Source: Nitrospirota bacterium
Lineage (GTDB): Bacteria > Nitrospirota > UBA9217
Length of the DNA: 30,139 nucleotides
Direction: 5' to 3'
Assembly (NCBI GenBank): GCA_029858565.1
Contig: JAOUEV010000045.1
Location: 1 to 30,139 of the forward strand
The notes under the pieces are model-generated. The model saw only the letters and a program-made list of their open reading frames with translations. It made no database searches and was not told where the DNA came from. Below, piece after piece: positions 6,529-30,139 of the stretch. The position numbers were made by a program, and so were the translations under genes. Each line of letters starts with the position of its first letter. The stretch's first letter is position 1.

Positions 6529-6858
6529 TCAGATCTTCTGGAGAATTGCGAATGAGGCTTTGATAAAACAGACGCCTTCGGGCAGCTTGCAATTACCGGC
6601 CTTTTTCTGCCCGGCCGGCGCAACTGGTCCCCGCAGGCCTGCCAGGCCTTCCCGGGCATCAGCGAGCATGCGCCGGAACGGGGAGGATGCGGCTGCAAGA
6701 GAGTCCGCCTGTTCAGTTTCGAATTTCACCAGTGCTTCGCGCGCGTTGTTCAGCGTATTGTTCCACGCGCTGCATTGGCCGCAGTAGAGATCGGCCTGCT
6801 GGCTTCTAAGAACGCCGAGCAGAAAATGATACCCCCGCACCTGGTTCATGATGTTCAT
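6529..6858 (-). CDS. Hypothetical protein (109 aa) with CxxC and Cx6C, possibly metal binding
   Basis: AGGAGG RBS before MNIMNQ; YCGQC and CKLPEGVC. Confidence 0.7.
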   Translation of the reverse strand: MNIMNQVRGYHFLLGVLRSQQADLYCGQCSAWNNTLNNAREALVKFETEQADSLAAASSPFRRMLADAREGLAGLRGPVAPAGQKKAGNCKLPEGVCFIKASFAILQKI

Positions 6859-6996
6859 TCTGTCCCTCCTTGTCGGGCAAAGAAAAAAATGGACCGGATG
6901 CCAGGATGAACAGCTGAAACCGGCAGATCGTCCTTGCATCCTGACGATCCCCTTCTCCGGTAAGGAGCTTAAGGTGTTCCCGCCCGCTCAGGCATG

Positions 6997-7392
6997 TCAG
7001 TGGTGCGCGCAGCCGCCGCCCGAACCGTGGTCGTGACCGTGGCCGCCGCAGCAGCCCTGCATCGCATACTCGGCAAGCTCTTTTCGTTCAAGAAGACTCA
7101 GGTTCTCATTGATCGTACCCGGAGCCGACCGATAGACCCGGATCCCCGCCTGGCCCAGCCGGCTCAGTGCGCCCGCGCCTATGCCGCCCACGATCACAAC
7201 GTCGATCTTCTGGTTATCCAGCGCCTTCAGCGGATTGCAGGCGCCATGCGCATGGTTCTTATCGCCGTTCTGAATGGTGGTTATCCCTTTTGAGCCTGTG
7301 TCTACCACTATGAATGCCGGCGCGGAGCCGAAATGATTGAACACCACGCTGTCGATCCCCTGGTCCTGCTGCACGGGAAAACAAACTTTCAT
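6997..7392 (-). CDS. NifB/NifX (dinitrogenase FeMo-cofactor) family protein with Cys/His-rich tail
   Basis: HFGSAPAF, VVIVGGIGAGA..L...GIRVY; tail GCCGGHGHDHGSGGGCAHH. Confidence 0.9.
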   Translation of the reverse strand: MKVCFPVQQDQGIDSVVFNHFGSAPAFIVVDTGSKGITTIQNGDKNHAHGACNPLKALDNQKIDVVIVGGIGAGALSRLGQAGIRVYRSAPGTINENLSLLERKELAEYAMQGCCGGHGHDHGSGGGCAHH

Positions 7393-7580
7393 GCCGCTAC
7401 CCCCTCTGATCTCGTTCTTCTGAACATCCGGTCCTCTTCGTTAGCGAAGAAACGCCTGCTGCCCTTATCGGGATATACTACGGCGCGGCGCTGAATTGTC
7501 AAGACGGCATTCCCGTTCCCGCTCCGGCGCAAAACGCTGTTTGGACCGCTGCATATCTTTTGCAACGTGTTCTCGGGACA

Positions 7581-7623
7581 TATGATTTAGCTCATAGCAC
7601 ATCTTCGGCACCGGCGTTATACT
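7581..7623 (+). promoter_or_regulatory. CRP/FNR-family (HcpR-like) box at a class II promoter position
   Basis: TATGA-N6-TCATA at 7581-7596 and -10 TATACT at 7618-7623. This puts the box centre near -41.5. Confidence 0.65.
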
Positions 7624-7662
7624 TCTGTCATCGAAACCAAGCATATATCCAAGGAGGTTCCT

Positions 7663-8109
7663 ATGTCACAAGGCTGCCCTTCCTGTTCCTCACTACCGGT
7701 GTTCGACAATACTTCCGGAGACGGCCCCAAGCGTCTCTCCCATTGGCCAATTCAGATCAAGCTCCTGGGAACGATCGTTCCGTTCCTGAACAACGCGGAC
7801 CTGCTGGTGGCCGCAGACTGCACGGCCTTTGCAACCCCCTTCTTTCACACGGAGTTCCTGAAGGACCGGAAGGTCCTGATCGGTTGCCCGAAGCTCGACG
7901 ACAGCATGCAATATGTCGAGAAGTTCACCCAGATATTCTCGAACACGCCGATAAAGAGCCTCACCTGTCTTCGCATGGAAGTCCCCTGCTGCGGCGGGAT
8001 GACCGCCATCCTGAAAGAGGCGATCAAGCGGTCAGGCAAGAACATTCCCTTTACCGAGACCATTATCGGAGTGAAAGGCGACCTGCTTTCTGAACGAGTT
8101 GTCGATTAG
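7663..8109 (+). CDS. Cys-rich Fe-S protein, stand-alone form of the HWPxQ/AADC/GCPKLD/MEVPCC domain usually fused to ferredoxins
   Basis: LSHWPIQIKL, DLLVAADC, IGCPKLDD, MEVPCCGG. AAGGAGG RBS. Confidence 0.85.
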   Translation: MSQGCPSCSSLPVFDNTSGDGPKRLSHWPIQIKLLGTIVPFLNNADLLVAADCTAFATPFFHTEFLKDRKVLIGCPKLDDSMQYVEKFTQIFSNTPIKSLTCLRMEVPCCGGMTAILKEAIKRSGKNIPFTETIIGVKGDLLSERVVD

Positions 8110-19453: not shown

Positions 19454-21949
19454 ATGAAACGTAAGATCATCATCTCACTCTTGTTGCTATTCCTCTTCTC
19501 GGCTTCCGGAGCCGTGACAGCGACCCTGTATATCCGCAACACCACCGCCACGCTCGGCCGGCTGATCCAGCTGCATAAGATCGGCAACATGCGGCAGCAC
19601 CTGATCATCACCATCCAGACCGTCCAATCGGAGTTGTACACCATCGGCACACCGCTTGGCCATGACATCAACGCGATCACGGACAATGTGAGCCGTCTCG
19701 ATGATGCCGTGCAGCAGTGCACGAACTGCCATGCCTATCACTCCGCAGATGTGATCACCGAGATCGGCCTGGTCCAGACGGACATCCAGCAGTACGAGCA
19801 CGCGATCAGCAATTACATCACCACGTCGGCGAACCAGGCGTACATCTCCCGGCTCAAGCTGAACGCCGCGGAGATCGGCAACCGGCTGCTTGCCCGGACC
19901 GGCCAGATGGCCTCGGCAGCCGCGGAAAAGCTCGAACACTCGACCGCGGAGGCCATGCTGAAGATCGGCAAGGCCCAGACCATTCTGACAGTCACGATCC
20001 TTTTCACATTCCTGCTCGGCATCAGCATAGCCGCGAATCTGGTCACCTCCGTGACCCGGCCCATCGCCAAACTGGTCGAGGCGACCCGGGCGATAGCCGA
20101 GGGAAATCTCGGCCAGACGGTCGACACAACGGACAAGACCGAGTTCGGTCTGCTGGCAAAACACTTCAACGCCATGAGCGCGGCGCTGCAGGAGAACTAC
20201 ACGAAGCTGGAGGTCGAGATCACGGAGCGGAAAGGCGCCATCGAAGCCCTGCGCGAGAGCGAGGAGCGCTACGCGCTGGCCGCCCGCGGCGCCAATGACG
20301 GTCTCTGGGACTGGGATATCCGCCACAACTACATTTTCTACTCGGTGCGGTGGAAATCCATGCTCGGCTTTGAGGAAACAGAGATCGGCAACACGCTCGC
20401 GGCCTGGCTTGACCTGGTCCATCCCGCGGACCGGGAACAGCTCGAAGCCAAGCTCTCGGCCCACATCAACGATCAGACCCAGCAGTTCGAATGCGAGTAC
20501 CGCGTCCGTCACAAGGACGGCGCCTACCGCTGGGTCCTGAGCCGCGGCCTCGCGGTCCGGAACGGGAACGGCAAGGCGCTGCGCATGGCCGGATCACAGA
20601 CGGACATCACCGCGCGCAAGACCGCCGAGGAACAGCTGCTCTACGACGCATTCCATGACGCGCTCACCGGTTTGCCCAACCGGGCGCTCTTCATGGACCG
20701 GCTCGAACATGTCATTGCCAGCGCGCGCAGGCATCCCGACTACCTTTACGCGGTCCTGTTCGTCGACCTGGACCGGTTCAAGGTGATCAACGACAGCATG
20801 GGCCACGGCGTGGGCGACATGCTTCTGATCGAGGTCGGCCTGCGGATCAAGGCCGGCATCCGGCCGGGAGACACGGTCGCCCGCCTGGGCGGCGACGAGT
20901 TCGCCGTTCTCCTCGAGGACATCAAGAGCGTCGGCGACGCCGAGGATGTCACCCGCCGCATCGAAGAGGAGCTTGCCCATCCGTACCGCATCCAGGACCA
21001 CGAGATCATCAGCACCCAGAGCATCGGCGTGGCCCTCAAGTCGGACCGGTACGAGTGGCCGGAGCAGATCCTGCGCGACGCAGATATCGCCATGTACCAG
21101 GCCAAATCCGACGGCCGGGCCCGCCACGAGTTCTTTGACACCAACATGCACGCCTCCATCATCGACCGGCTGCAGCTCGAAGCGGACCTGCGCGTGGCGG
21201 TCGAGCATCAGCAAGGCTTCGTCCTGCACTACCAGCCCATCATGAACCTGAAGACCCGCCAGCTGAAGGGATTCGAGTCGCTGGTGCGGTGGAAGCATCC
21301 GACGCGGGGCCTGCTCTATCCGCTCGAGTTCATCCCCCTTGCCGAGGAGACCGGCCTGATCCTGCCGCTGACCAAGTGGATACTCCTGGAGTCCTGCAAG
21401 CAGCTTCGCCTGTGGCAGAAGAAGTACGACTCGGACACCACGCTTGCCATCAGTGTGAATGTGTCGAGCAAGACGCTGGTGCAGCCCGGCTTCGTCGACA
21501 CGGTCGCGTCGGTGCTCAATAACGAATCTCTGCCTCAGGGCAGCCTTGCCCTGGAGATCACCGAGAGCGTGCTCATGGAACATACCACCGTGGCCATGGA
21601 TGCCATGACCCGCCTGCAGTCCATGGGCGTCCACATCCACATCGATGATTTCGGCACAGGCTACTCGTCGCTCAGCTATCTCCACTCCTTCCCGGTCAAC
21701 GCGCTCAAGATCGACCGGTCCTTCATTGCCAAGCTGTCGTCGCGGGGAGACAACCAGGAGATCGTGCGAACGATCATCACCCTTGCCCAGAACCTGCGGC
21801 TCGAAGTGATCGCCGAGGGCGTGGAACAGAGCGACCAGTTGTCCACGATCTGCGATCTTGACTGCCACTACGGCCAGGGTTTCCTTTTCTCAAAGCCCCT
21901 TTCGCCTTCTGAGATGGAACACTGGATGACCCTTCGCAACGAAGCCTGA
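19454..21949 (+). CDS. Membrane diguanylate cyclase/phosphodiesterase: TM - CxxCH sensor - TM - HAMP - PAS - GGDEF - EAL
   Basis: CTNCH at 19718-19732; PAS (GLWDWD, HPAD); RPGD I-site and GGDEF; ESLVRW, DDFGTGYSS, AEGVE. Confidence 0.95.
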   Translation: MKRKIIISLLLLFLFSASGAVTATLYIRNTTATLGRLIQLHKIGNMRQHLIITIQTVQSELYTIGTPLGHDINAITDNVSRLDDAVQQCTNCHAYHSADVITEIGLVQTDIQQYEHAISNYITTSANQAYISRLKLNAAEIGNRLLARTGQMASAAAEKLEHSTAEAMLKIGKAQTILTVTILFTFLLGISIAANLVTSVTRPIAKLVEATRAIAEGNLGQTVDTTDKTEFGLLAKHFNAMSAALQENYTKLEVEITERKGAIEALRESEERYALAARGANDGLWDWDIRHNYIFYSVRWKSMLGFEETEIGNTLAAWLDLVHPADREQLEAKLSAHINDQTQQFECEYRVRHKDGAYRWVLSRGLAVRNGNGKALRMAGSQTDITARKTAEEQLLYDAFHDALTGLPNRALFMDRLEHVIASARRHPDYLYAVLFVDLDRFKVINDSMGHGVGDMLLIEVGLRIKAGIRPGDTVARLGGDEFAVLLEDIKSVGDAEDVTRRIEEELAHPYRIQDHEIISTQSIGVALKSDRYEWPEQILRDADIAMYQAKSDGRARHEFFDTNMHASIIDRLQLEADLRVAVEHQQGFVLHYQPIMNLKTRQLKGFESLVRWKHPTRGLLYPLEFIPLAEETGLILPLTKWILLESCKQLRLWQKKYDSDTTLAISVNVSSKTLVQPGFVDTVASVLNNESLPQGSLALEITESVLMEHTTVAMDAMTRLQSMGVHIHIDDFGTGYSSLSYLHSFPVNALKIDRSFIAKLSSRGDNQEIVRTIITLAQNLRLEVIAEGVEQSDQLSTICDLDCHYGQGFLFSKPLSPSEMEHWMTLRNEA

Positions 21950-22208: not shown

Positions 22209-22934
22209 TCAGCCCGGCCGGACCTGGGGCACCACGCTGTTCCGGATGAACTGCTCGATCTGGGCTTTGTCATCCGGCGTGAGGCCCAGGAACCGCATGC
22301 CCATGCCCGGCTCCTTGTTCGGTCCTTCACCGAACGAGTAGGTGTACAGCACCTGCGCTTCGGTGCGCACGATCCTCTTCCCCACCATGAAGCTGACGGA
22401 GTGCTTTGTTCCGACCGGACGGGGACCGAGCGTCTTGACGAAACATCCCGTGTCGGAGAGCATGGTGATGAATTCCGTCCCGGTTCCCGCACCGTCGATG
22501 GACGTCCGCAGGAAGGTCGCGACACGGATGTTCCTGCGCGGCGTCTCCTCGAGCACCGTCTGCACTGCGCGGTATAATTCCTCGGCATGGACCGGCTTCC
22601 GAAGGTAGACCGCGCAATTCTCGCGCCTGCAAAGGTCCTCGCTCTCCAGGTCCGCCAGCTGCGTCTGGATGATCACCGGTATCCCGCGGTGTTTCCGGAG
22701 CTTCGCCAGGAAATCGAAACCGTTCATGCCCGGCAGCTTCAGCTCGGTCACCACGAGCGCGGGAACGGCGATGGAGATATATTCCAGCGCTTCCTCGGCG
22801 GACCTGACCGTTGTCGCGTTGTACCCGAAGTTTTGAAGCAGCATCCCCGTATAGTAGGCATCCTTGGCGTTGTCATCCACTATTAGGACGAACCGCTTCT
22901 TCCTCACATCGGGGACATCACCACTATCGTTCAT
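22209..22934 (-). CDS. Atypical receiver (REC) plus PilZ domain protein
   Basis: VLIVDD, VVTELKLPGMNG (Glu at the phospho-Asp position), YLRKP. PilZ RRNIR, LSDTGCF, GMGMRF. Confidence 0.88.
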   Translation of the reverse strand: MNDSGDVPDVRKKRFVLIVDDNAKDAYYTGMLLQNFGYNATTVRSAEEALEYISIAVPALVVTELKLPGMNGFDFLAKLRKHRGIPVIIQTQLADLESEDLCRRENCAVYLRKPVHAEELYRAVQTVLEETPRRNIRVATFLRTSIDGAGTGTEFITMLSDTGCFVKTLGPRPVGTKHSVSFMVGKRIVRTEAQVLYTYSFGEGPNKEPGMGMRFLGLTPDDKAQIEQFIRNSVVPQVRPG

Positions 22935-22999: not shown

Positions 23000-24619
23000 T
23001 CAGGGGCTGATCGTCACCCGGTCTCCCTGCTTGATCCCCGAGCCCCCTGCTGTCTCGATCACCCAGGTTACGGGCCCGCCGGAAGGATAAAGCTCCCGTG
23101 AACCAGGCCTGCGGTCATGGTAGGTCCTGACGACCGAACCGCCTTGTTCCACGAACAGGATGTCGATGGGGTAGGAAACGCTTGCCATCCAGAATGTCGT
23201 GCTTTCCGGCGGATCAAAACGGAACAGCGCCGCTTCGTCAGATGCCAGTTTCCGGAATCCCTGGAGCCCCTTTGCCTTTTCCTTCTCAGTGGTACAGACC
23301 AGAACGATCCGATAGTTCCGTTGCGTGCCTCCGCCTGCCGGGCTCACGGTGAGCGTCCGCATCTGCGCCGGCTGTTCTTCGCCCCGGGCGGTCCGCGTCC
23401 CGACAACGAGCACCAGGATCCCCGCGGCGATCGTGATCACCGTGATCAGCGCGCCAACGCGGAAGTACTCGAAGAAACCGATGGTCACCCGTTTTCGCGC
23501 CTGCTGCAGCACGATCAGGTTCGCGACCGAGCCGATCAGCGTGAAATTGCCCGCAAGAGTGCTGCTCATGGCAAGGGTCAGCCAGGCGATCTGGTCACCG
23601 CCAAGAGCATTGACCAGCGGCCGGAGCAACATGACCGCCGGCACATTGCTCACCACGTTCGACAGCACCGCGGAGACCAGGGAGAGCCCAGCGATCCTGT
23701 TGATCGGCGAGGCCTCGTTCAGCGCCCCTGCCTGCCGCAGCAGTACTTCCGCCAATCCCGACACCTCCACCCCGTGCATCACGATAAAGAGGCCGGCAAA
23801 GAAGAGCAGCAGCGTCCAGTCCACGCCCTCGAGTATCTGCTCGGTGCTCTTCTTTCCCACCAGCATCAGCGCGACCGCTCCTGCCACGGCAACGAGGGGA
23901 TAAGGATGGCCCAGCGAGAAGAGTACCAGCACCCCGCCGCTCACGATCAGCGACTTGATCAGGAGCGGACGATCGACAGCAACAGGCGAGACCTGCGCCC
24001 GGCGGGAAAAAGGCTGGCTCGTGATCTCCCTGCGGTAGACCAGACGGATCACCGCGATGCTGACCGCGATGCCGATAGCTGCCACCGGCGCGAGCGCCTG
24101 TAAAAAGGAGAGATAGGGGATGCCCGAAGCGATGCCGATCAGCATGTTCTGGGGATTTCCGGTGATGGTCATGACGCTCCCGATATTCGATGCCGTGGCA
24201 AGCGCCAGAAGATAGGGGAGAGGATTGACGCCGGCCTGGATCGTCACCTCGAGCAGGATCGGCGTGAAGAGCAGGCAGATGGTGTCGTTCACAAAGAGCG
24301 CCGAGAGCAGCGCGCTTGCCAGCGATACCAGCACCAGGAGCTGCTGCGGCGTCCGGGCCACGGACAGGATGCGCTCGGCCATGAGCTCAAAAAAACCCGC
24401 GGTCCGGAGATAGACCGTGATGATCATCATGCCGAGCAGCAGCAGCAGCGTGTGCATGTCAATTGCGCTGAATGCCTGGTCCAGGGTGAGCACGCCGGTA
24501 ACGACCATCAGCACCGCGCCCACCAGGGCCCCTGCAGGCCGGTTGATCGGGATACGGGGAACCTGGGTCAGCCCCACAAAGACATAGGTAATAAGGAAGA
24601 CGATCAGCGCGGTGATCAT
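23000..24619 (-). CDS. ArsB/NhaD-family (YbiR-like) anion permease fused to a C-terminal DUF192-like domain
   Basis: LSALFVNDT, ASNIGS.MTITGNPQN, SNVVSNVPA, STLAGNFTLIGSVAN. Tail KGLQGF...ALFRF...FWMASVSYPIDILFV...GIKQGDRV. Confidence 0.88.
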   Translation of the reverse strand: MITALIVFLITYVFVGLTQVPRIPINRPAGALVGAVLMVVTGVLTLDQAFSAIDMHTLLLLLGMMIITVYLRTAGFFELMAERILSVARTPQQLLVLVSLASALLSALFVNDTICLLFTPILLEVTIQAGVNPLPYLLALATASNIGSVMTITGNPQNMLIGIASGIPYLSFLQALAPVAAIGIAVSIAVIRLVYRREITSQPFSRRAQVSPVAVDRPLLIKSLIVSGGVLVLFSLGHPYPLVAVAGAVALMLVGKKSTEQILEGVDWTLLLFFAGLFIVMHGVEVSGLAEVLLRQAGALNEASPINRIAGLSLVSAVLSNVVSNVPAVMLLRPLVNALGGDQIAWLTLAMSSTLAGNFTLIGSVANLIVLQQARKRVTIGFFEYFRVGALITVITIAAGILVLVVGTRTARGEEQPAQMRTLTVSPAGGGTQRNYRIVLVCTTEKEKAKGLQGFRKLASDEAALFRFDPPESTTFWMASVSYPIDILFVEQGGSVVRTYHDRRPGSRELYPSGGPVTWVIETAGGSGIKQGDRVTISP

Positions 24620-24724: not shown

Positions 24725-25726
24725 ATGAAAACTGAACAGGTCCTTTCAAATTGCCGGACGCTCTATTGCGCTGTGCTCATTCTGCTGTGTTTGGTCACTG
24801 GTGCTGATCATGCTGTTGCGGAAGGCCGCATCAAGCCCTTCTCCAGCGACGGCTGCAGTCTTTTCCCTGACGGCACGATCGACGATCGCACCAAATGGTG
24901 CGACTGCTGCCTGAGCCATGACATCGCTTACTGGCAGGGCGGAACCGAGGAGGTAAGGGAAAAAGCCGACGAAGAGCTCAGGAACTGCGTGTTCAGCAGG
25001 ACGAATGACAAAGCGCTGGCCGAGACCATGTACCTGGGCGTACGCGCAGGCGGGCATCCGGCATTTCCTACAGGGTACCGCTGGGCATACGGCTGGTCCT
25101 ATGGCAGAGGATATCAGGTCCTGACTGCTGCAGAGCAACAGCAGGCCCGGAAAGAACTCAATGAGTACAAGCTAAAGCATCCAACAGGCTATTGCGGAGA
25201 GCATGGCTCAGAAACCACTGGCACATCCCCGGCCCAGGACCGTCCCGCTGCCTGGGCAACACCAGTTCAGTCGGAACATCTCAAGAACTTCTACAAGCTT
25301 GACAACAAAGTGTACCGCTCTGCCCAGCCGAACAAAAAGGGCTTCAAGGAGCTTGCAGCGCTCGGCATCAGGAACGTGCTCAGCTTCCGGGACTATCATT
25401 CTGATGATGACGGCAAGAACTTCGGTCTGAACCTGTTCCGCGTCAAGATGGAGGCGGGCGACATCACGTTAGAGAAGGTCGTAGAAGCCTTGCGCGTCAT
25501 CAGGAACAGCAACGGCCCGATCCTGATCCACTGCTGGCACGGCTCCGACCGCACCGGACTTATCAGCGCAATGTACCGGATCGTGTTCCAAAATCGGTCA
25601 AAGGACGATGCTATTGAGGAGTTGATGAACGGCGGGTACGGGTATCATTCGTTGTATAAAAATATTCCGGAGTTCATCCGGCATGTGGATGTTGAGGAGA
25701 TCAGGAAGCTAGTTCTCACATTGTAG
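24725..25726 (+). CDS. Exported two-domain protein: PLA2-like Cys-rich domain plus CX5R dual-specificity/tyrosine phosphatase
   Basis: Signal-like N-terminus; SDGCS...CCLSHDIAYW.GG...AD.EL..CV; VYRSAQP and IHCWHGSDRTG (HCx5R at 25529-25552). Confidence 0.82.
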   Translation: MKTEQVLSNCRTLYCAVLILLCLVTGADHAVAEGRIKPFSSDGCSLFPDGTIDDRTKWCDCCLSHDIAYWQGGTEEVREKADEELRNCVFSRTNDKALAETMYLGVRAGGHPAFPTGYRWAYGWSYGRGYQVLTAAEQQQARKELNEYKLKHPTGYCGEHGSETTGTSPAQDRPAAWATPVQSEHLKNFYKLDNKVYRSAQPNKKGFKELAALGIRNVLSFRDYHSDDDGKNFGLNLFRVKMEAGDITLEKVVEALRVIRNSNGPILIHCWHGSDRTGLISAMYRIVFQNRSKDDAIEELMNGGYGYHSLYKNIPEFIRHVDVEEIRKLVLTL

Positions 25727-25998
25727 CGAGGCTCACTACTTCTTCCTGAAGCTATTGAAGTCGCACTATTTTGAAACTCATCAGATACATTCCGTATTAA
25801 TTGATGTGCTCTTAAAATAGCCGATCACAAACTCTCATCGTTACCATTGACTTCGCCGTGAATCAGGGAGTAAATATCAGCAAACACTCATGTTTCGTGT
25901 GTCACGTAATTCCGTACGAGCGCATTTCCAAAGGGACAATCGTGGGTTTTTCGTTTGACCCAATAATTTGGCTGGTGGAATAAATCTTGGGGAACAAC

Positions 25999-28900
25999 AT
26001 GGCGATTTCCTTTGCAGAAGCAACCCGGTGCCTGCTTGGCGGCAAACCGCTGGCATGGGGCGCCTTCGAAGAACACAAGGCCGCGTCACTGATACTGGCC
26101 AAGCCTGGACAGAGACGGCTGTTCGCCTTCTTGCTGGCCCAGGACCGTGCGAAGGTGGCGAGCGGCGACGAAGAACTCTTCGCCGGGCTCATTGCCGCCT
26201 GGAACAGCTCCGGCGTCGATCCGGCCGCAGACGGGACCACCGAGACCCCGAAATCGTCCAAGGATGTCTGGCGGCTGGATCGGATTGAAGCGTCAGGCTT
26301 TGGCGGCTTGACCCTGTTTGGTAGTCCGCCATTCGATTTCCGCATCGGTGGGGAGAACTGGTGTCTCAATGGGCAAAACGGCTCAGGCAAGACGTCACTC
26401 GCGAGTGCCATACTCTGGGCTCTTACGGGCAAGCGCATCCGCGAGCAAGAGGGGCCGGTCGACGAACACGGAGAACGCGCGGCCGTGATCAACGAGACCG
26501 GCAAGAAGCTTGGGGATTGGCCGTCCTTTGCCTCCTACCCATCGTCCGCTGCCGACCTAACCAAACCGGTCAACGTCTGGGTGCGGCTGACCTTCGTAAA
26601 CCAGCAAGGTGAGATCGCCACTGCGTACCGGCAGATGCAGTGTCCGTTGAAGGACGATCCTAAATCGGAGGTCATGATTGACTCAAGGCTGTTGGCCGCC
26701 CCTGAACTGTTGGAGACAGGGCTACTGATGCCAGCGCGGTTGGCTCGGATTGGCTTCGGCGACAAGAGCGGCTCGCTGTATGAAGCCGTCAAAATGCTCA
26801 CCGGTCTTGATCAGCTTGCAGACATCGCGGACGGTTGCGCCCAATTCACGCACGGCGGTCGACGATTTTTAAAATACGGCAAGGATAAAGGTCTTGAGCG
26901 CTGGGCCGCGAAGTTCACAGAGGAGATTGCCAAAGCGGTGGAGAAGGCGAGCGAGTTGCGATTCGTTCTGCCGGATAAGCGTAGTTTGGGTGACAAAACG
27001 CTCGTCACCGATCTCAAGGAAGCTGCGGTCAGTGCGGCGACCGAGGCAGGCACTCATCTGGAGACCCTGAAGTCTCAGATTTCTCCCACTATCGATACGT
27101 CCACTATTGCGGGGCGCACGACGGTCCGCGATGGCGTAGCCTCGGCGCGGGCAATCGTCAACCAAGGTACAAAGGGAATTGTACTCTTCGAGGCTTGGAT
27201 CGCGCTAAAGGCAGCGAAGGAAGATGAAGCTTTTGCGGGTCTACCCGCAGCTATTGATGCTGCGCGAGCAAGATTGGACCGAGCCCTGTCATGGCACGCC
27301 CAACAAAACGCCGACCAGAAATTTCGATTGAAAGCCTTAGCGGCGCAATTTTACGTACCCCCGCAAGAACACTCCGTACCAGCGCAATGTCCGCTCTGCT
27401 CGGCACGCCTATCGACGGCTGAGCAGCAGGATTTGGCGGTGCGGTTAGCCCAACTCCAGAAAGACGCCGCGGAGGCCGAGCGCAAGCTGGATGATGTGTG
27501 CCGCGGTCTGGAGGCCGAGTTGGTGGAGCGCTTGCCGGCGGAGCTGAAGCGGCACAGGGACTTCCTGGTAACGATGGAGCCCAAGACGGGCTACGGTGCT
27601 GCGATCCGTGAACGGTTTTGCGAGGGGATCCCTTTTACCAATGTTCTGCTCGGACTCGCAGGGCGGATAAAGAGCAGGGTTGATCTGCAAGAGGCCGCAT
27701 TACCGACTTTCGCGTTTGCGACGTTTGAACCTGCAGAGGATGAACCGGAACCGGCTATCATTTTGCGCCGCAGCCTGCATAACCTCGAACGGCTATCTGC
27801 TCTCGTCGAATGGTGGTCTGAGCATCGTGGTGCATATCGTCAGGCCTGGTCGGAGGTGATTGGGCAAGTCCAGGAAGATGGCACCTATCCGGCGGATAGC
27901 GTCGAGGGCCAGCTCCGAGCGTTGGAAGATGCGTTGTCCAAAGCTGAACCACTGGACGCATTATCCAAATTTCTACTGGAGGCCGTTGCATCGGCTTCGA
28001 ACTGGGACACGATCCGCAAAGAGCAGGATTTGCGCGAAGCGATCGCTGAGGCCTTGGAGCCGCTCAAGCACTTGCGTCTGCTAGTCTCGGCCGAAACTGC
28101 TCGCTCGATCGCCAATCTGTCGATCCGCATCAAGGATATTCTCGGGCGAATCCACCTGAAAGAACGCTTAACTTACGAACAGACCTCATTGGGCAAGAAG
28201 GTCGTACACGTCGGTGGCAGCTTTGAAACCGGCATGCAGATTGATGCGGCTCTGGTGGCCAACACCTCCTGGCTGCGGGCAATTCTGTGGGCGTTCATTC
28301 TCGCTTTGCGCGAAGAAACGATTGAAGGCCTAGGTGCCAACCCGTTCCCGCTTATGGTGCTCGACGATCCGCAAATGAGCTTTGATCCTCGTAACAAGCG
28401 CAAATGGGCGGAAGAGATCACCCGCCTGGCGAACATGGACCGCACGGTGGCCAAAGGGCTTCAGCTCTTTCTCACCACTCACGAACGGCAATTTTATCAG
28501 TGCATCGTGGACGTCGAACGGCTTAAAGGGGAACAGGGTCTAATCGGTGGTGTTAACAAAACCTCTGGTGTGGCGACGATCGTCAATGCCGGTTGGCTGC
28601 AGAGAGCTTGGCAGAACGCAAGTGAAAACAATGATGATGCACTCGCCCGAGACTATATAGCCGATGTTCGCATCTATTGTGAGGATCTGTTGAAGTTCAT
28701 GCTGCGTGCCGAAGGTCCCGCGATCCCGAATCTCAGCCTTGACGGTTTAAAACACGAGCTGAAGCGGTTGCATGATGCCCATGTTGCGCCCTTCAACCGT
28801 AAAGCCTTCGCTGATCTGCTCAAGACGTTGATGGGTGGTGGCGGCAAGCCCATGAAGCTGATCAATGAGGTCCACCACAAGGACGATGAGAGCATCGGCT

Positions 28901-29871
28901 TGGCGGAAGCAAGGGACGTCAATGCGTTCTGGGAAAAGACTTTCATGAACCAAATCCACGATGCCTTTGCCGTCTACGACGCGTTTGAATCCTTCTACGG
29001 CGAGCCGCGTACCTTCCCCTGGGCCAAGACAGTGATTCCGTTTCCAGGTGGCTTCCGCGAGGATGTGAAGACGGTTACATTGCAGAAAACCGGAATTGCC
29101 GCCGCTGCCAAGACCGGCAGTCGCGCAGGCGATGGTGTGGTGACGGTCAAGGAATGGGAGACGACCACTGCAATCACCTTGACCAATCATGAGATCTATC
29201 AGCTGGCAGCCGGGACCTTGGATCCGGTGGCGGCCATCGGCGATCTGGTCATCGTTTGCAACCACGCCAAGGTCAACCCGCGCGATCTGGTCGTAGCGGC
29301 ACACGGAAACGCGTTGCTTGCGCGGCGCTACAATGAGATGGAAGCGCATCCCGAGATCGCCGTGCTGACTGGTCAGTCGGTCGACCCTTGCGCCTTGCCC
29401 GAGCCCCTAATCATAGGGCGGGAGCAGGCCAATTTGCGCAAAATCGTCGGAACACTCTTCGCGGCACATCGCTTCGCGGTCCCGGCCCTCGATCCGAACG
29501 CCGAAGTTGTTGCTCTTAAAGACTCTAGCGTCCCGCAACAGATGCTCAATGGTGCGCGGCTTTTCGAGGTGCAGGGGCGCAGCGCCGAGCCGATAGCACT
29601 GGAGGGGCAGTTCTTAATCACCCGAGAGGCCGTCACAACCATCGAGCAGATCAAGTCATTCGACAGCCGACCCATCGTGGCGGTCGATGAAGATGGAACT
29701 CGGTACTTCAAGCGACTGCGTTGCCGAGGCGATCTCGCGGTGCTTGAAAGTCTGAATCCAGACGGCACTACAGCCGCGGAACTCTTGGGTTTCACTGGCG
29801 CGGAAGGGCTGCCGAAACTTACACATGCGCTGGAAGTGATTGGCGTCTTGTTTGAGCTGCCCCATTCGTAG
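25999..29871 (+). CDS. Rad50/RloC-like ABC-ATPase with zinc hook, HEPN-like region and tandem C-terminal S24 (LexA-like) domains (1290 aa); candidate defence protein
   Basis: RIEASGFGG, Walker A GQNGSGKT, helical region with central CPLC, Walker B MVLDDP, H-loop LTTHE. C-terminal VQGRSAEP...YFKRL...LESLNP. Confidence 0.8.
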   Translation: MAISFAEATRCLLGGKPLAWGAFEEHKAASLILAKPGQRRLFAFLLAQDRAKVASGDEELFAGLIAAWNSSGVDPAADGTTETPKSSKDVWRLDRIEASGFGGLTLFGSPPFDFRIGGENWCLNGQNGSGKTSLASAILWALTGKRIREQEGPVDEHGERAAVINETGKKLGDWPSFASYPSSAADLTKPVNVWVRLTFVNQQGEIATAYRQMQCPLKDDPKSEVMIDSRLLAAPELLETGLLMPARLARIGFGDKSGSLYEAVKMLTGLDQLADIADGCAQFTHGGRRFLKYGKDKGLERWAAKFTEEIAKAVEKASELRFVLPDKRSLGDKTLVTDLKEAAVSAATEAGTHLETLKSQISPTIDTSTIAGRTTVRDGVASARAIVNQGTKGIVLFEAWIALKAAKEDEAFAGLPAAIDAARARLDRALSWHAQQNADQKFRLKALAAQFYVPPQEHSVPAQCPLCSARLSTAEQQDLAVRLAQLQKDAAEAERKLDDVCRGLEAELVERLPAELKRHRDFLVTMEPKTGYGAAIRERFCEGIPFTNVLLGLAGRIKSRVDLQEAALPTFAFATFEPAEDEPEPAIILRRSLHNLERLSALVEWWSEHRGAYRQAWSEVIGQVQEDGTYPADSVEGQLRALEDALSKAEPLDALSKFLLEAVASASNWDTIRKEQDLREAIAEALEPLKHLRLLVSAETARSIANLSIRIKDILGRIHLKERLTYEQTSLGKKVVHVGGSFETGMQIDAALVANTSWLRAILWAFILALREETIEGLGANPFPLMVLDDPQMSFDPRNKRKWAEEITRLANMDRTVAKGLQLFLTTHERQFYQCIVDVERLKGEQGLIGGVNKTSGVATIVNAGWLQRAWQNASENNDDALARDYIADVRIYCEDLLKFMLRAEGPAIPNLSLDGLKHELKRLHDAHVAPFNRKAFADLLKTLMGGGGKPMKLINEVHHKDDESIGLAEARDVNAFWEKTFMNQIHDAFAVYDAFESFYGEPRTFPWAKTVIPFPGGFREDVKTVTLQKTGIAAAAKTGSRAGDGVVTVKEWETTTAITLTNHEIYQLAAGTLDPVAAIGDLVIVCNHAKVNPRDLVVAAHGNALLARRYNEMEAHPEIAVLTGQSVDPCALPEPLIIGREQANLRKIVGTLFAAHRFAVPALDPNAEVVALKDSSVPQQMLNGARLFEVQGRSAEPIALEGQFLITREAVTTIEQIKSFDSRPIVAVDEDGTRYFKRLRCRGDLAVLESLNPDGTTAAELLGFTGAEGLPKLTHALEVIGVLFELPHS

Positions 29872-30139
29872 GCACCATGCATATACTTTATTTAGGGTCA
29901 CTTCTCTTCTTTTTAGGCTCACTTCTTTACCTTTGACAAGATATCGAGCATCGAGAAGTGAACCAATGGATCCTTCGTTTGCGAAACTAGAAATAACCAA
30001 GGGTATCAATTTGACTAGAGTTTCGAGCGAGCTGACCCGCTCGTCGCGATTTTTACGACGATTTCAGCATTGCCCTATTGATCTTTCACATAGCATCTAC
30101 GCGGCTTTTGGCAGTTTCCGCGTCGATGCGGCTGTTTCC

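Follow-up and report, generated by a model that had tools for sequence, protein, structure and literature searches.

What kind of enzyme is encoded at positions 25999-29871 of contig JAOUEV010000045.1, from the 3.9-Mb genome of a Nitrospirota bacterium (GCA_029858565.1)? The contig is 30,139 bp long and makes up the whole stretch of DNA analysed here (the window). The gene lies on the forward (+) strand, as do all of its features described below, and encodes a protein of 1290 amino acids (aa) followed by a stop codon. In this protein a Rad50-like ATPase head with a zinc hook is joined to a helical domain resembling HEPN RNases and to two C-terminal domains of the LexA/S24 type. The combination suggests a bacterial enzyme of suicide or defence that has not been described before, and which a protease latch sensitive to DNA damage would keep inactive. 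More specifically, we give about an even chance to a single-gene, RloC-like RNase that senses DNA damage or phage and is switched by a pseudo-dimeric S24 module cutting at Ala1037. The sensor-RNase plan itself is already known; the new part is the unusual regulatory module placed on it.

The open reading frame (ORF) begins at 25987 or 25999, depending on the start codon. We took the ATG at 25999 as the start because the family consensus begins at its Met; an in-frame TTG four codons further 5' (25987) is unlikely to be the true start. The motifs that a first-pass annotation of this DNA had listed were all located at the positions it gave, and they are conserved across 66 family members that are 21-78% identical to the C-terminal part, so they are not chance matches. 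Residue counts out of 66 refer to these members, and invariance in the head and hook refers to an alignment of 30 family sequences.

Domain architecture of the protein

The ATPase part occupies roughly the first two thirds of the protein. It is preceded by an N-terminal extension (approximately residues 1-95, 25999-26283) which is conserved in the family, with L33, R39, R40, L41, W68, W91 and L93 invariant, and which had no match in Pfam, NCBIfam or PADLOC. The N-terminal lobe of an ABC ATPase head follows (approximately residues 96-300, 26284-26898, boundaries approximate), with Pfam matches to AAA_23 (residues 119-206) and SMC_N, and the C-terminal lobe (approximately residues 735-850, 28201-28548) matches AAA_21 (residues 765-828). 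The lobes are separated by a putative coiled-coil arm (approximately residues 301-734, 26899-28200) carrying a CPLC zinc hook with C464 and C467 (27388-27399). The Walker A motif GQNGSGKT (26371-26394) and the DDP of the Walker B motif MVLDDP (28354-28371) are invariant, as are the hook residues C464, P465 and C467 and the residues N755, S757, W758, L759, R760, D789, D790 and H828; a signature-like ANTSWLR (28258-28278) and the H-loop LTTHE (28471-28485) complete the head. A family profile matched Rad50 and SMC heads in the PDB with E-values of 1e-9 to 1e-7, and its positions 395-506 matched the Rad50 hook entry 6zff with an E-value of 0.02.

The head is followed by a helical domain (residues 864-999, 28588-28995), recognised from AlphaFold2 (AF2) models, structural comparison with VIA-align, and conservation. 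Residues 835-1290 were modelled with a mean predicted local distance difference test (pLDDT) score of 85.9, and the helical domain alone with 90.9. In a VIA-align search of 48,161 PDB representatives the top match of this domain was 4nqf, annotated as 'HEPN domain protein' (Z 10.8, 124 aligned residues, root-mean-square deviation (rmsd) 3.0), followed by Roquin (Z 9.5), the HEPN toxin 7ae2 (Z 8.7) and sacsin (Z 8.3). The HEPN toxins 5yep and 8xdj are also listed, together with AF_0298, TT1696, Csm6 and HepS, and nearly all of the first eleven matches are HEPN proteins. VIA-align thus recovered the fold expected of HEPN domains, an up-down bundle of four helices in which helices 2 and 3 are separated by an insert, at Z-scores below 13.

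HEPN RNase active sites have been described as a Glu in helix 2, within an E-x3-[KR] pattern, and a His that ends helix 3, within an Rx4-6H motif (PMC3710099). E895 and K/R899 form an E-x3-[KR] pattern within helix 880-901 (helix 2), which places an acidic residue where HEPN domains have one, and H959 and H960 directly follow helix 949-957 (the end of helix 3). The predicted RNase triad comprises R891 (28669-28671) and E895 (28681-28683), both within VRIYCE (28666-28683), and H960 (28876-28878), the last residue of NEVHH (28864-28878); K899 and H959 may contribute as well. All three positions are close to invariant (R891 in 65/66, E895 in 64/66 and H960 in 66/66 members), and K/R899 (54/66) and H959 (57/66) are also well conserved. 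The near-invariant Arg comes from helix 2, four residues before the Glu, as in the triad of RloC. The proposal that the middle region is HEPN-like was therefore upheld by the structural matches and by the placement of Glu and His at described active-site positions, and we assign the modelled domain to HEPN with moderate confidence.

The C-terminal region contains two domains with the S24 fold. The top Foldseek matches of this region were LexA (3k2z, E-value 2.9e-4), cI (2ho0), LexA (1jhe) and UmuD'. With VIA-align, domain 1 matched UmuD' (Z 9.6, 91 aligned, rmsd 2.5, residues 191-320 of the model) and domain 2 matched the C-terminal domain of lambda cI (Z 7.8, 94 aligned, rmsd 3.2), so the suspected pair of S24-like domains was borne out at the level of fold. 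Pfam Peptidase_S24 (PF00717) scored 24.9 bits on the whole protein and 28.7 bits on its C-terminal part, against a cut-off of 23.3, and only 20.8 bits on this gene in a six-frame search of the genome. Among 30 family members, 23 scored above the cut-off and all 30 were matched at E <= 1, the best stretch being domain 1 in four of them. A single-sequence phmmer search of PDB sequences with residues 1020-1290 did not find LexA. The S24 relationship is thus visible with Pfam and by fold only.

We aligned both S24 domains with the LexA and UmuD-like proteins of the same host genome, which encodes RecA and a LexA of 204 aa with the cleavage motif GRVAAG. Domain 2 (residues 1170-1284, 29506-29850; PF00717 at 1178-1255) is predicted to be active. 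Its Ser1195 (codon 29581-29583, in GRSAEP, 29575-29592) and Lys1238 (codon 29710-29712, in YFKRL, 29704-29718) fall on the catalytic dyad of the host proteins, and G1193, S1195, P1198, Q1204 and K1238 are each present in 66/66 members, in agreement with the dyad first proposed for this repeat. Domain 1 (residues 1027-1154, 29077-29460) is predicted to be catalytically dead, and has Thr1073 (in AGTLDP, 29209-29226) and Ala1108 (in LARRY, 29317-29331) at the positions of Ser and Lys. The Ser-equivalent position is occupied by T in 53 members, N in 6, S in 3, A in 2 and R and H in one each; the Lys-equivalent position is A in 61 and V in 5, with Lys in 0/66, which confirms that the first repeat is degenerate. 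Domain 1 is otherwise conserved (R1109 63/66, R1110 66/66, G1081 63/66).

Domain 1 begins with a strand and loop (residues 1027-1042, 29077-29124) that align to the GRVAAG site of the host LexA, as had been suspected from the letters TGIAAAAKTG. The motif GIAAAAK (29092-29112) contains the predicted scissile bond Ala1037/Lys1038 (codons 29107-29112); the cut may alternatively fall between Ala1036 and Ala1037. A1037 is present in 66/66 members, position 1036 is A in 59 and S in 7, and position 1035 is A in 45 and V in 12. The family pattern G-x-[AV]-[AS]-A1037 is LexA-like as far as P1. G-[RK]-[VAIL]-A-A occurs in 14/66 members, and in distant members x-[TS]-D-G-R comes directly after GRVAA, GRVSA or GRAAA. 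Residues 1038-1043 have pLDDT values below 50, and are the sole low-confidence stretch of the model besides its first four residues, indicating a flexible loop. The stretch before domain 2, K-[IV]-V-G-[TV]-L-F, lacks a conserved small-residue pair. The tandem is thus asymmetric in every member: a substrate loop of LexA type comes with the predicted dead domain, and the dyad, with no such loop, with the predicted live one.

The strong conservation of R1109, R1110 and G1081 in the dead domain suggests a binding role, and the S24 domains of LexA and cI bind the groove of RecA filaments (titles of PDB entries 8gms, 8trg, 8gmu and 8s7g). The tandem might accordingly be mainly a targeting or turnover module, which docks the ATPase-RNase on RecA-coated single-stranded DNA (ssDNA), or self-cleavage might turn the protein off, or label it for degradation once damage has occurred, in the manner of LexA fragments. 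We regard this as rather unlikely. The invariant Ser/Lys dyad and the invariant Ala in the LexA-like loop argue that catalysis matters, and the loop sits exactly where effector and S24 module meet, the position at which a release switch would naturally be placed.

Three further S24 frames were observed in the host genome, a UmuD-like protein of 169 aa, an S24 protein of 176 aa and a frame of 300 aa in which the S24 match is split; the LexA and S24 frames of the host are located on contigs C3, C142, C61 and C20 (L065-L069).

Relation to described systems and distribution of the family

RloC is a latent tRNase that excises the wobble nucleotide, with a nuclease regulated by a Rad50-like head and a zinc hook; its authors proposed that it is activated by DNA damage (PMC2610378). 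Its catalytic triad Arg-X3-Glu-X36-52-His, also present in PrrC, was defined and proven by mutagenesis by Davidov and Kaufmann in 2008 (PMC2610378). The present protein shares with RloC and PrrC an ABC head in a single polypeptide and, like them, has no fixed partner gene, which is the usual situation in both. It also shares with RloC the putative coiled coil with a CxxC hook, followed by a HEPN-like domain in which Arg-x3-Glu and His stand further apart than in RloC; the ABC head with a CxxC zinc-hook insert that characterises RloC is present here as Walker A, Walker B, H-loop and C464/C467. Mutation of the hook makes RloC hyperactive. Unlike RloC, it carries the N-terminal extension of approximately 95 residues, the LexA-like loop and the two S24 domains, and it is approximately 500 residues longer than the AAA_13 proteins with which it was compared (745-807 aa).

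Membership of the RloC/PrrC family by sequence was ruled out. Pfam AAA_13 (PF13166) matched neither this protein at E <= 1 nor any other part of the genome, and none of 11 AAA_13 proteins from genomes of the same phylum scored above 4.4 bits with a hidden Markov model (HMM) of the present family. These 11 proteins have a CxFC or CxYC hook near residues 270-310 and a C-terminal RxxxE...[S/H]H, and three of them end in HHD as here. The PADLOC model of PrrC matched only the Walker B region (E-value 0.0016). An hhalign comparison of the nuclease domain with RloC-type C-termini gave a score of 24.7 (P 0.0015), compared with 14.8 for a reversed control and a best score of 18.1 among 30 shuffles, none of which reached 24.7. 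Under a permissive setting, R-x3-E and HH were both in register with the AAA_13 triad. The likeness of the nuclease domains may reflect distant homology or convergence, and these alignments prove neither.

A separate cluster of 877-aa proteins in the ESM Atlas has 67 members; AAA_13 is found in 100% of these, and Peptidase_S24 in 97%. As a lead, this suggests that true RloC-type proteins may have gained S24 tails independently.

The S24 module resembles LexA, UmuD and cI in its beta fold, in the G-x-S-[AM]-x-P and K-R motifs that carry the Ser/Lys dyad of domain 2, and in a G-R-V-A-A-type strand and loop located approximately 35 residues upstream of the Ser position of domain 1. It differs from them in having two S24 domains in one chain, the loop-bearing one without a dyad, and in the P1' residue, which is Gly in those proteins and not here. 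A DNA-binding repressor domain is absent, and the N-terminal cargo is instead a predicted ATPase-RNase of 1000 residues.

Lamassu was the nearest described system for the ATPase and coiled-coil part. LmuB gave the best PADLOC match (PDLC03859, E-value 1e-13, residues 305-849). PADLOC matches were confined to the ATPase part, with none on the HEPN part and none meaningful on the S24 part, and version 2 of PADLOC has no model for either of these. LmuB is a Rad50/SbcC-like sensor of DNA ends coupled to a toxic effector, and Lamassu effectors are diverse; HEPN is not among the LmuA effector domains in the list consulted from that paper (PMC12663957). In the present protein the effector is fused to the sensor, is of HEPN type and has no partner gene. 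No LmuA or LmuC was found by PADLOC among 130 neighbouring genes, and identity with Lamassu was ruled out by the lack of these or any other conserved neighbours.

Lamassu effectors include proteases (PMC12663957), and the live S24 domain could by analogy be a trans-acting protease effector with a host or phage target, in which case the Ala-Ala loop would act as no more than a pseudosubstrate. The variable P1' residue, unlike that of self-cleaving S24 proteins, would fit such a role. A separate, fully conserved nuclease-type site is already available as an effector in this protein, though, and S24 members are known to cut themselves and are not known as general proteases. We consider a protease acting in trans very improbable.

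Identity with SbcC, Rad50 or RecF was ruled out by NCBIfam scores far below the respective cut-offs (sbcc 18.8 vs 478.5, recF 19.5 vs 172, Rad50 12.9 vs 700). With the ATPase part alone recognised by PADLOC and AAA_13 unmatched, the first impression that the protein matches no described system held, and a search of the main texts of the literature found no description of a Rad50/RloC-like ATPase-HEPN-S24 fusion. Relatives are annotated in databases as 'AAA family ATPase', 'hypothetical protein' and once as 'LexA'.

A word-indexed search found 373 relatives. Among the 120 matches listed, identity ranged from 51% to 83%, 108 had lengths of 1270-1335 aa, and nearly all were close to full size at 1285-1295 aa. 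An exhaustive search with residues 835-1290 yielded 285 cluster representatives at E <= 0.001, and the family thus comprises at least 285 clusters at 50% identity; full-length representatives (1226-1346 aa) carry the C-terminal region at the same place. Two short hits (P0186 and P0213) that appeared to be free-standing or S24-less forms were rejected as truncated fragments of the same family. With one genome per species across 185,579 species, the gene was located at 56 loci, mostly in Alphaproteobacteria with some in Gammaproteobacteria, Acidobacteriota and Nitrospira. It was found in none of 40 relatives of the host (3 of the same genus, 21 of the same family and 16 of the same phylum). This absence and the best matches in other lineages indicate horizontal acquisition.

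The single-gene status proposed in the first-pass annotation was supported by the neighbourhoods of related loci: the largest cluster of neighbouring genes was common to only 4 of 41 loci, and no small ORF within 600 bp recurred in more than 3 of 37 loci, which were close relatives of one another. Scans for sigma-70 promoters and for terminators near the gene found no more than in shuffled sequences. An association with mobile or defence genes was likewise supported. Judged from Pfam matches, mobile or conflict genes (integrase, transposase, type IV secretion system (T4SS) or conjugation, plasmid, restriction-modification (RM), toxin-antitoxin, STAND and nucleotidyltransferase-conflict genes) lie within three genes of the family gene at 21 of 36 related loci. 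A PADLOC scan of 130 neighbours at 33 loci, with three loci that had only housekeeping Pfam matches left out, found defence matches within two genes at eight loci (type IIG and type III RM, PD-T4-3, PD-T7-1, AbiLi/AbiLii, Hhe/PDC-S37, PDC-S31, MkoA-like and reverse transcriptase). We give about an even chance to a stand-alone, horizontally mobile sensor-effector of RloC-like build with a proteolytic latch.

Several loci are on or next to plasmid or conjugation genes, including repABC (L025), RepB (L021) and T4SS coupling proteins or VirB11 (L031, L033, L043), and integrases or transposases are near the family gene in more than ten loci. These neighbours, and the IS-like repeat that follows the gene in the window, raise the alternative that the same chemistry serves another beneficiary: plasmids and integrative elements might use it as a weapon or an addiction module, in competition with other mobile elements or in post-segregational killing. 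We consider this unlikely: no conserved antitoxin-like partner was seen, and known defence genes are direct neighbours at 8/33 loci. Defence systems commonly ride such elements, however, and this alternative overlaps with the defence enzyme that we favour.

An SbcCD-like pair is located directly beside the family gene at 6 of 36 loci, as Metallophos with AAA_27 in L009, L023, L025 and L054 and as SbcD with SbcC in L031 and L033; in L023, L025 and L054 it lies immediately upstream on the same strand. The pairing could stem from mobile elements that these loci share, or from a functional link within a sub-clade. In locus L029 (Sphingomonas), the family gene is preceded on its own strand by a Y-family polymerase gene (IMS/IMS_C, 6747-7829, +), the end of which is approximately 170 bp away. 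Polymerases of this family act in damage tolerance, and this neighbour hints at a DNA-damage context. Such neighbours, together with the resemblance of the head to Rad50 and SMC, would suit a housekeeping repair protein of the SMC/SbcC/RecN type whose level is tuned by SOS, with the helical domain as a non-catalytic, nucleic-acid-binding HEPN. We consider this very improbable in view of the sbcc and recF scores given above, the restriction of the family to 56 loci in 185,579 species with no copy in 40 host relatives, and the near-invariant R-E-H triad, which is typical of catalytic HEPNs.

A proposed proteolytic switch

Under the reading that we favour, the head acts as sensor and the HEPN domain as toxic effector, by analogy with RloC and LmuB. 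Two protomers would pair through the zinc hook, and the ATPase head would report DNA ends or aberrant or foreign DNA, as proposed by analogy with RloC and Lamassu. The S24 tandem would form a built-in pseudo-dimer in which the dead partner supplies the loop that the live domain cuts at Ala1037, resembling the UmuD-style cleavage across a dimer but made intramolecular. Because the Ala1037 bond lies exactly between effector and latch, the cut would separate residues 1-1037 (ATPase and HEPN) from a 253-residue S24 fragment. The HEPN RNase, thereby freed from autoinhibition, would cleave tRNA or other RNA and stop translation, leading to abortive infection or damage-induced dormancy.

To our knowledge, every classical S24 protein responds to RecA filaments. 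RecA filaments are thus the obvious trigger in a host that encodes both RecA and LexA, and the cut is probably stimulated by RecA-ssDNA filaments (RecA*), as in LexA, UmuD and cI. We infer both the dependence on RecA* and the direction of the switch. A more elaborate version is possible, and we hold it tentatively: a two-key switch in which the head reads DNA ends and the LexA-type module reads RecA filaments before the HEPN tRNase is freed, with the dead S24 domain donating its loop to its live partner in what would be a new kind of S24 device. It would also be the first case of an immune effector controlled directly through SOS-type autoproteolysis and not through transcription.

Several observations weigh against a RecA-responsive, self-cleaving RNase of RloC type. 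The HEPN assignment is the first point at issue. A Z-score of 10.8 is below the value of approximately 13 that helical bundles can reach through common arrangement, Foldseek with the HEPN domain alone returned nothing at E <= 0.001 (the best match was Csm6' with an E-value of 0.76), and no Pfam HEPN family was matched among 30 members. The Arg position of the canonical Rx4-6H motif corresponds to K953; the first-pass annotation had noted Lys in place of Arg, which is true of the present protein, but the position itself is not conserved in the family (K in 28 and R in 4 of 66). The kinship with RloC is limited by the low HMM scores on AAA_13 proteins, by an hhalign probability of only 16%, and by a Glu-to-His spacing of 64 residues, compared with 36-52 in RloC.

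The proposed cut meets difficulties of its own. The cleavage loop belongs to the dead domain, and the residue after Ala1037 (P1') varies (K in 19, L in 12, A in 10 and F in 6 members, among others) and is never Gly, so the candidate site may follow other rules or stay uncut. Some LexA-like proteins act independently of RecA (PMC7101444). With respect to context, 15 of 36 loci have no mobile or conflict gene nearby, and the remaining genes of the window are mostly housekeeping genes. SOS boxes were not enriched upstream of the family gene (GTTC-N7-GTTC at 1/37 loci vs 1% background, CTGT-N8-ACAG at 0/37). As SOS boxes are not enriched, any link to damage would be post-translational.

RloC, Lamassu and OLD-type systems are cases in which Rad50-like or ABC ATPases couple the sensing of DNA ends to nucleases that kill the cell, and how such toxic effectors are silenced is only partly understood. 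The present family suggests another kind of safety catch, in which the self-cleaving chemistry of LexA is built into the effector protein. Should this hold, the damage signal of RecA would be coupled to immunity or dormancy at the post-translational level and without the SOS regulon, and a function could be assigned to a family of approximately 1290-aa proteins of the size given above. The dead/live S24 tandem would also be a natural model for work on the delivery of cleavage loops to S24 active sites. Taken with the 877-aa AAA_13 and S24 cluster, the two-key switch would point to S24 latches as a general, unrecognised control layer of bacterial immunity.

Interrupted copies and surroundings in the window

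Eight of 37 related loci (L020, L027, L036, L039, L043, L047, L050 and L055) have a family gene with a broken reading frame, in which the longest open stretch is 298-1170 codons; L020 and L043 are from complete genomes. These frames may be pseudogenes of a costly gene or the result of long-read frameshift errors.

In the window, GC content dips to 51% at 25001-26000, before the gene. Approximately 145 bp after the stop codon begins a multi-copy, IS-like repeat end (30015-30139, no strand assigned), which lies outside the gene and ends the contig. Six other contigs contain this repeat of approximately 125 bp with 98-100% identity; in five it lies at the contig end, and in C60 approximately 90 bp before the end of the available stretch. 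A multi-copy insertion sequence (IS) element, of which this would be the terminus, probably broke the assembly.

The gene just upstream (24725-25726, +) encodes a protein of 333 aa with a dual-specificity/tyrosine phosphatase (Y_phosphatase2, Tc-R-P 'polymorphic toxin system' PTPase) as its C-terminal half. Nothing matched the first approximately 190 residues, PADLOC gave no match for the protein, and at no other locus does this gene adjoin the family gene. Further upstream, 23000-24619 (-) encodes a CitMHS/ArsB-type transporter with a C-terminal DUF192 fusion. A HAMP-PAS-GGDEF-EAL protein gene (19454-21949, +) adjoins a gene for a response-regulator-PilZ fusion (22209-22934, -), and the two form a compact c-di-GMP signalling pair.

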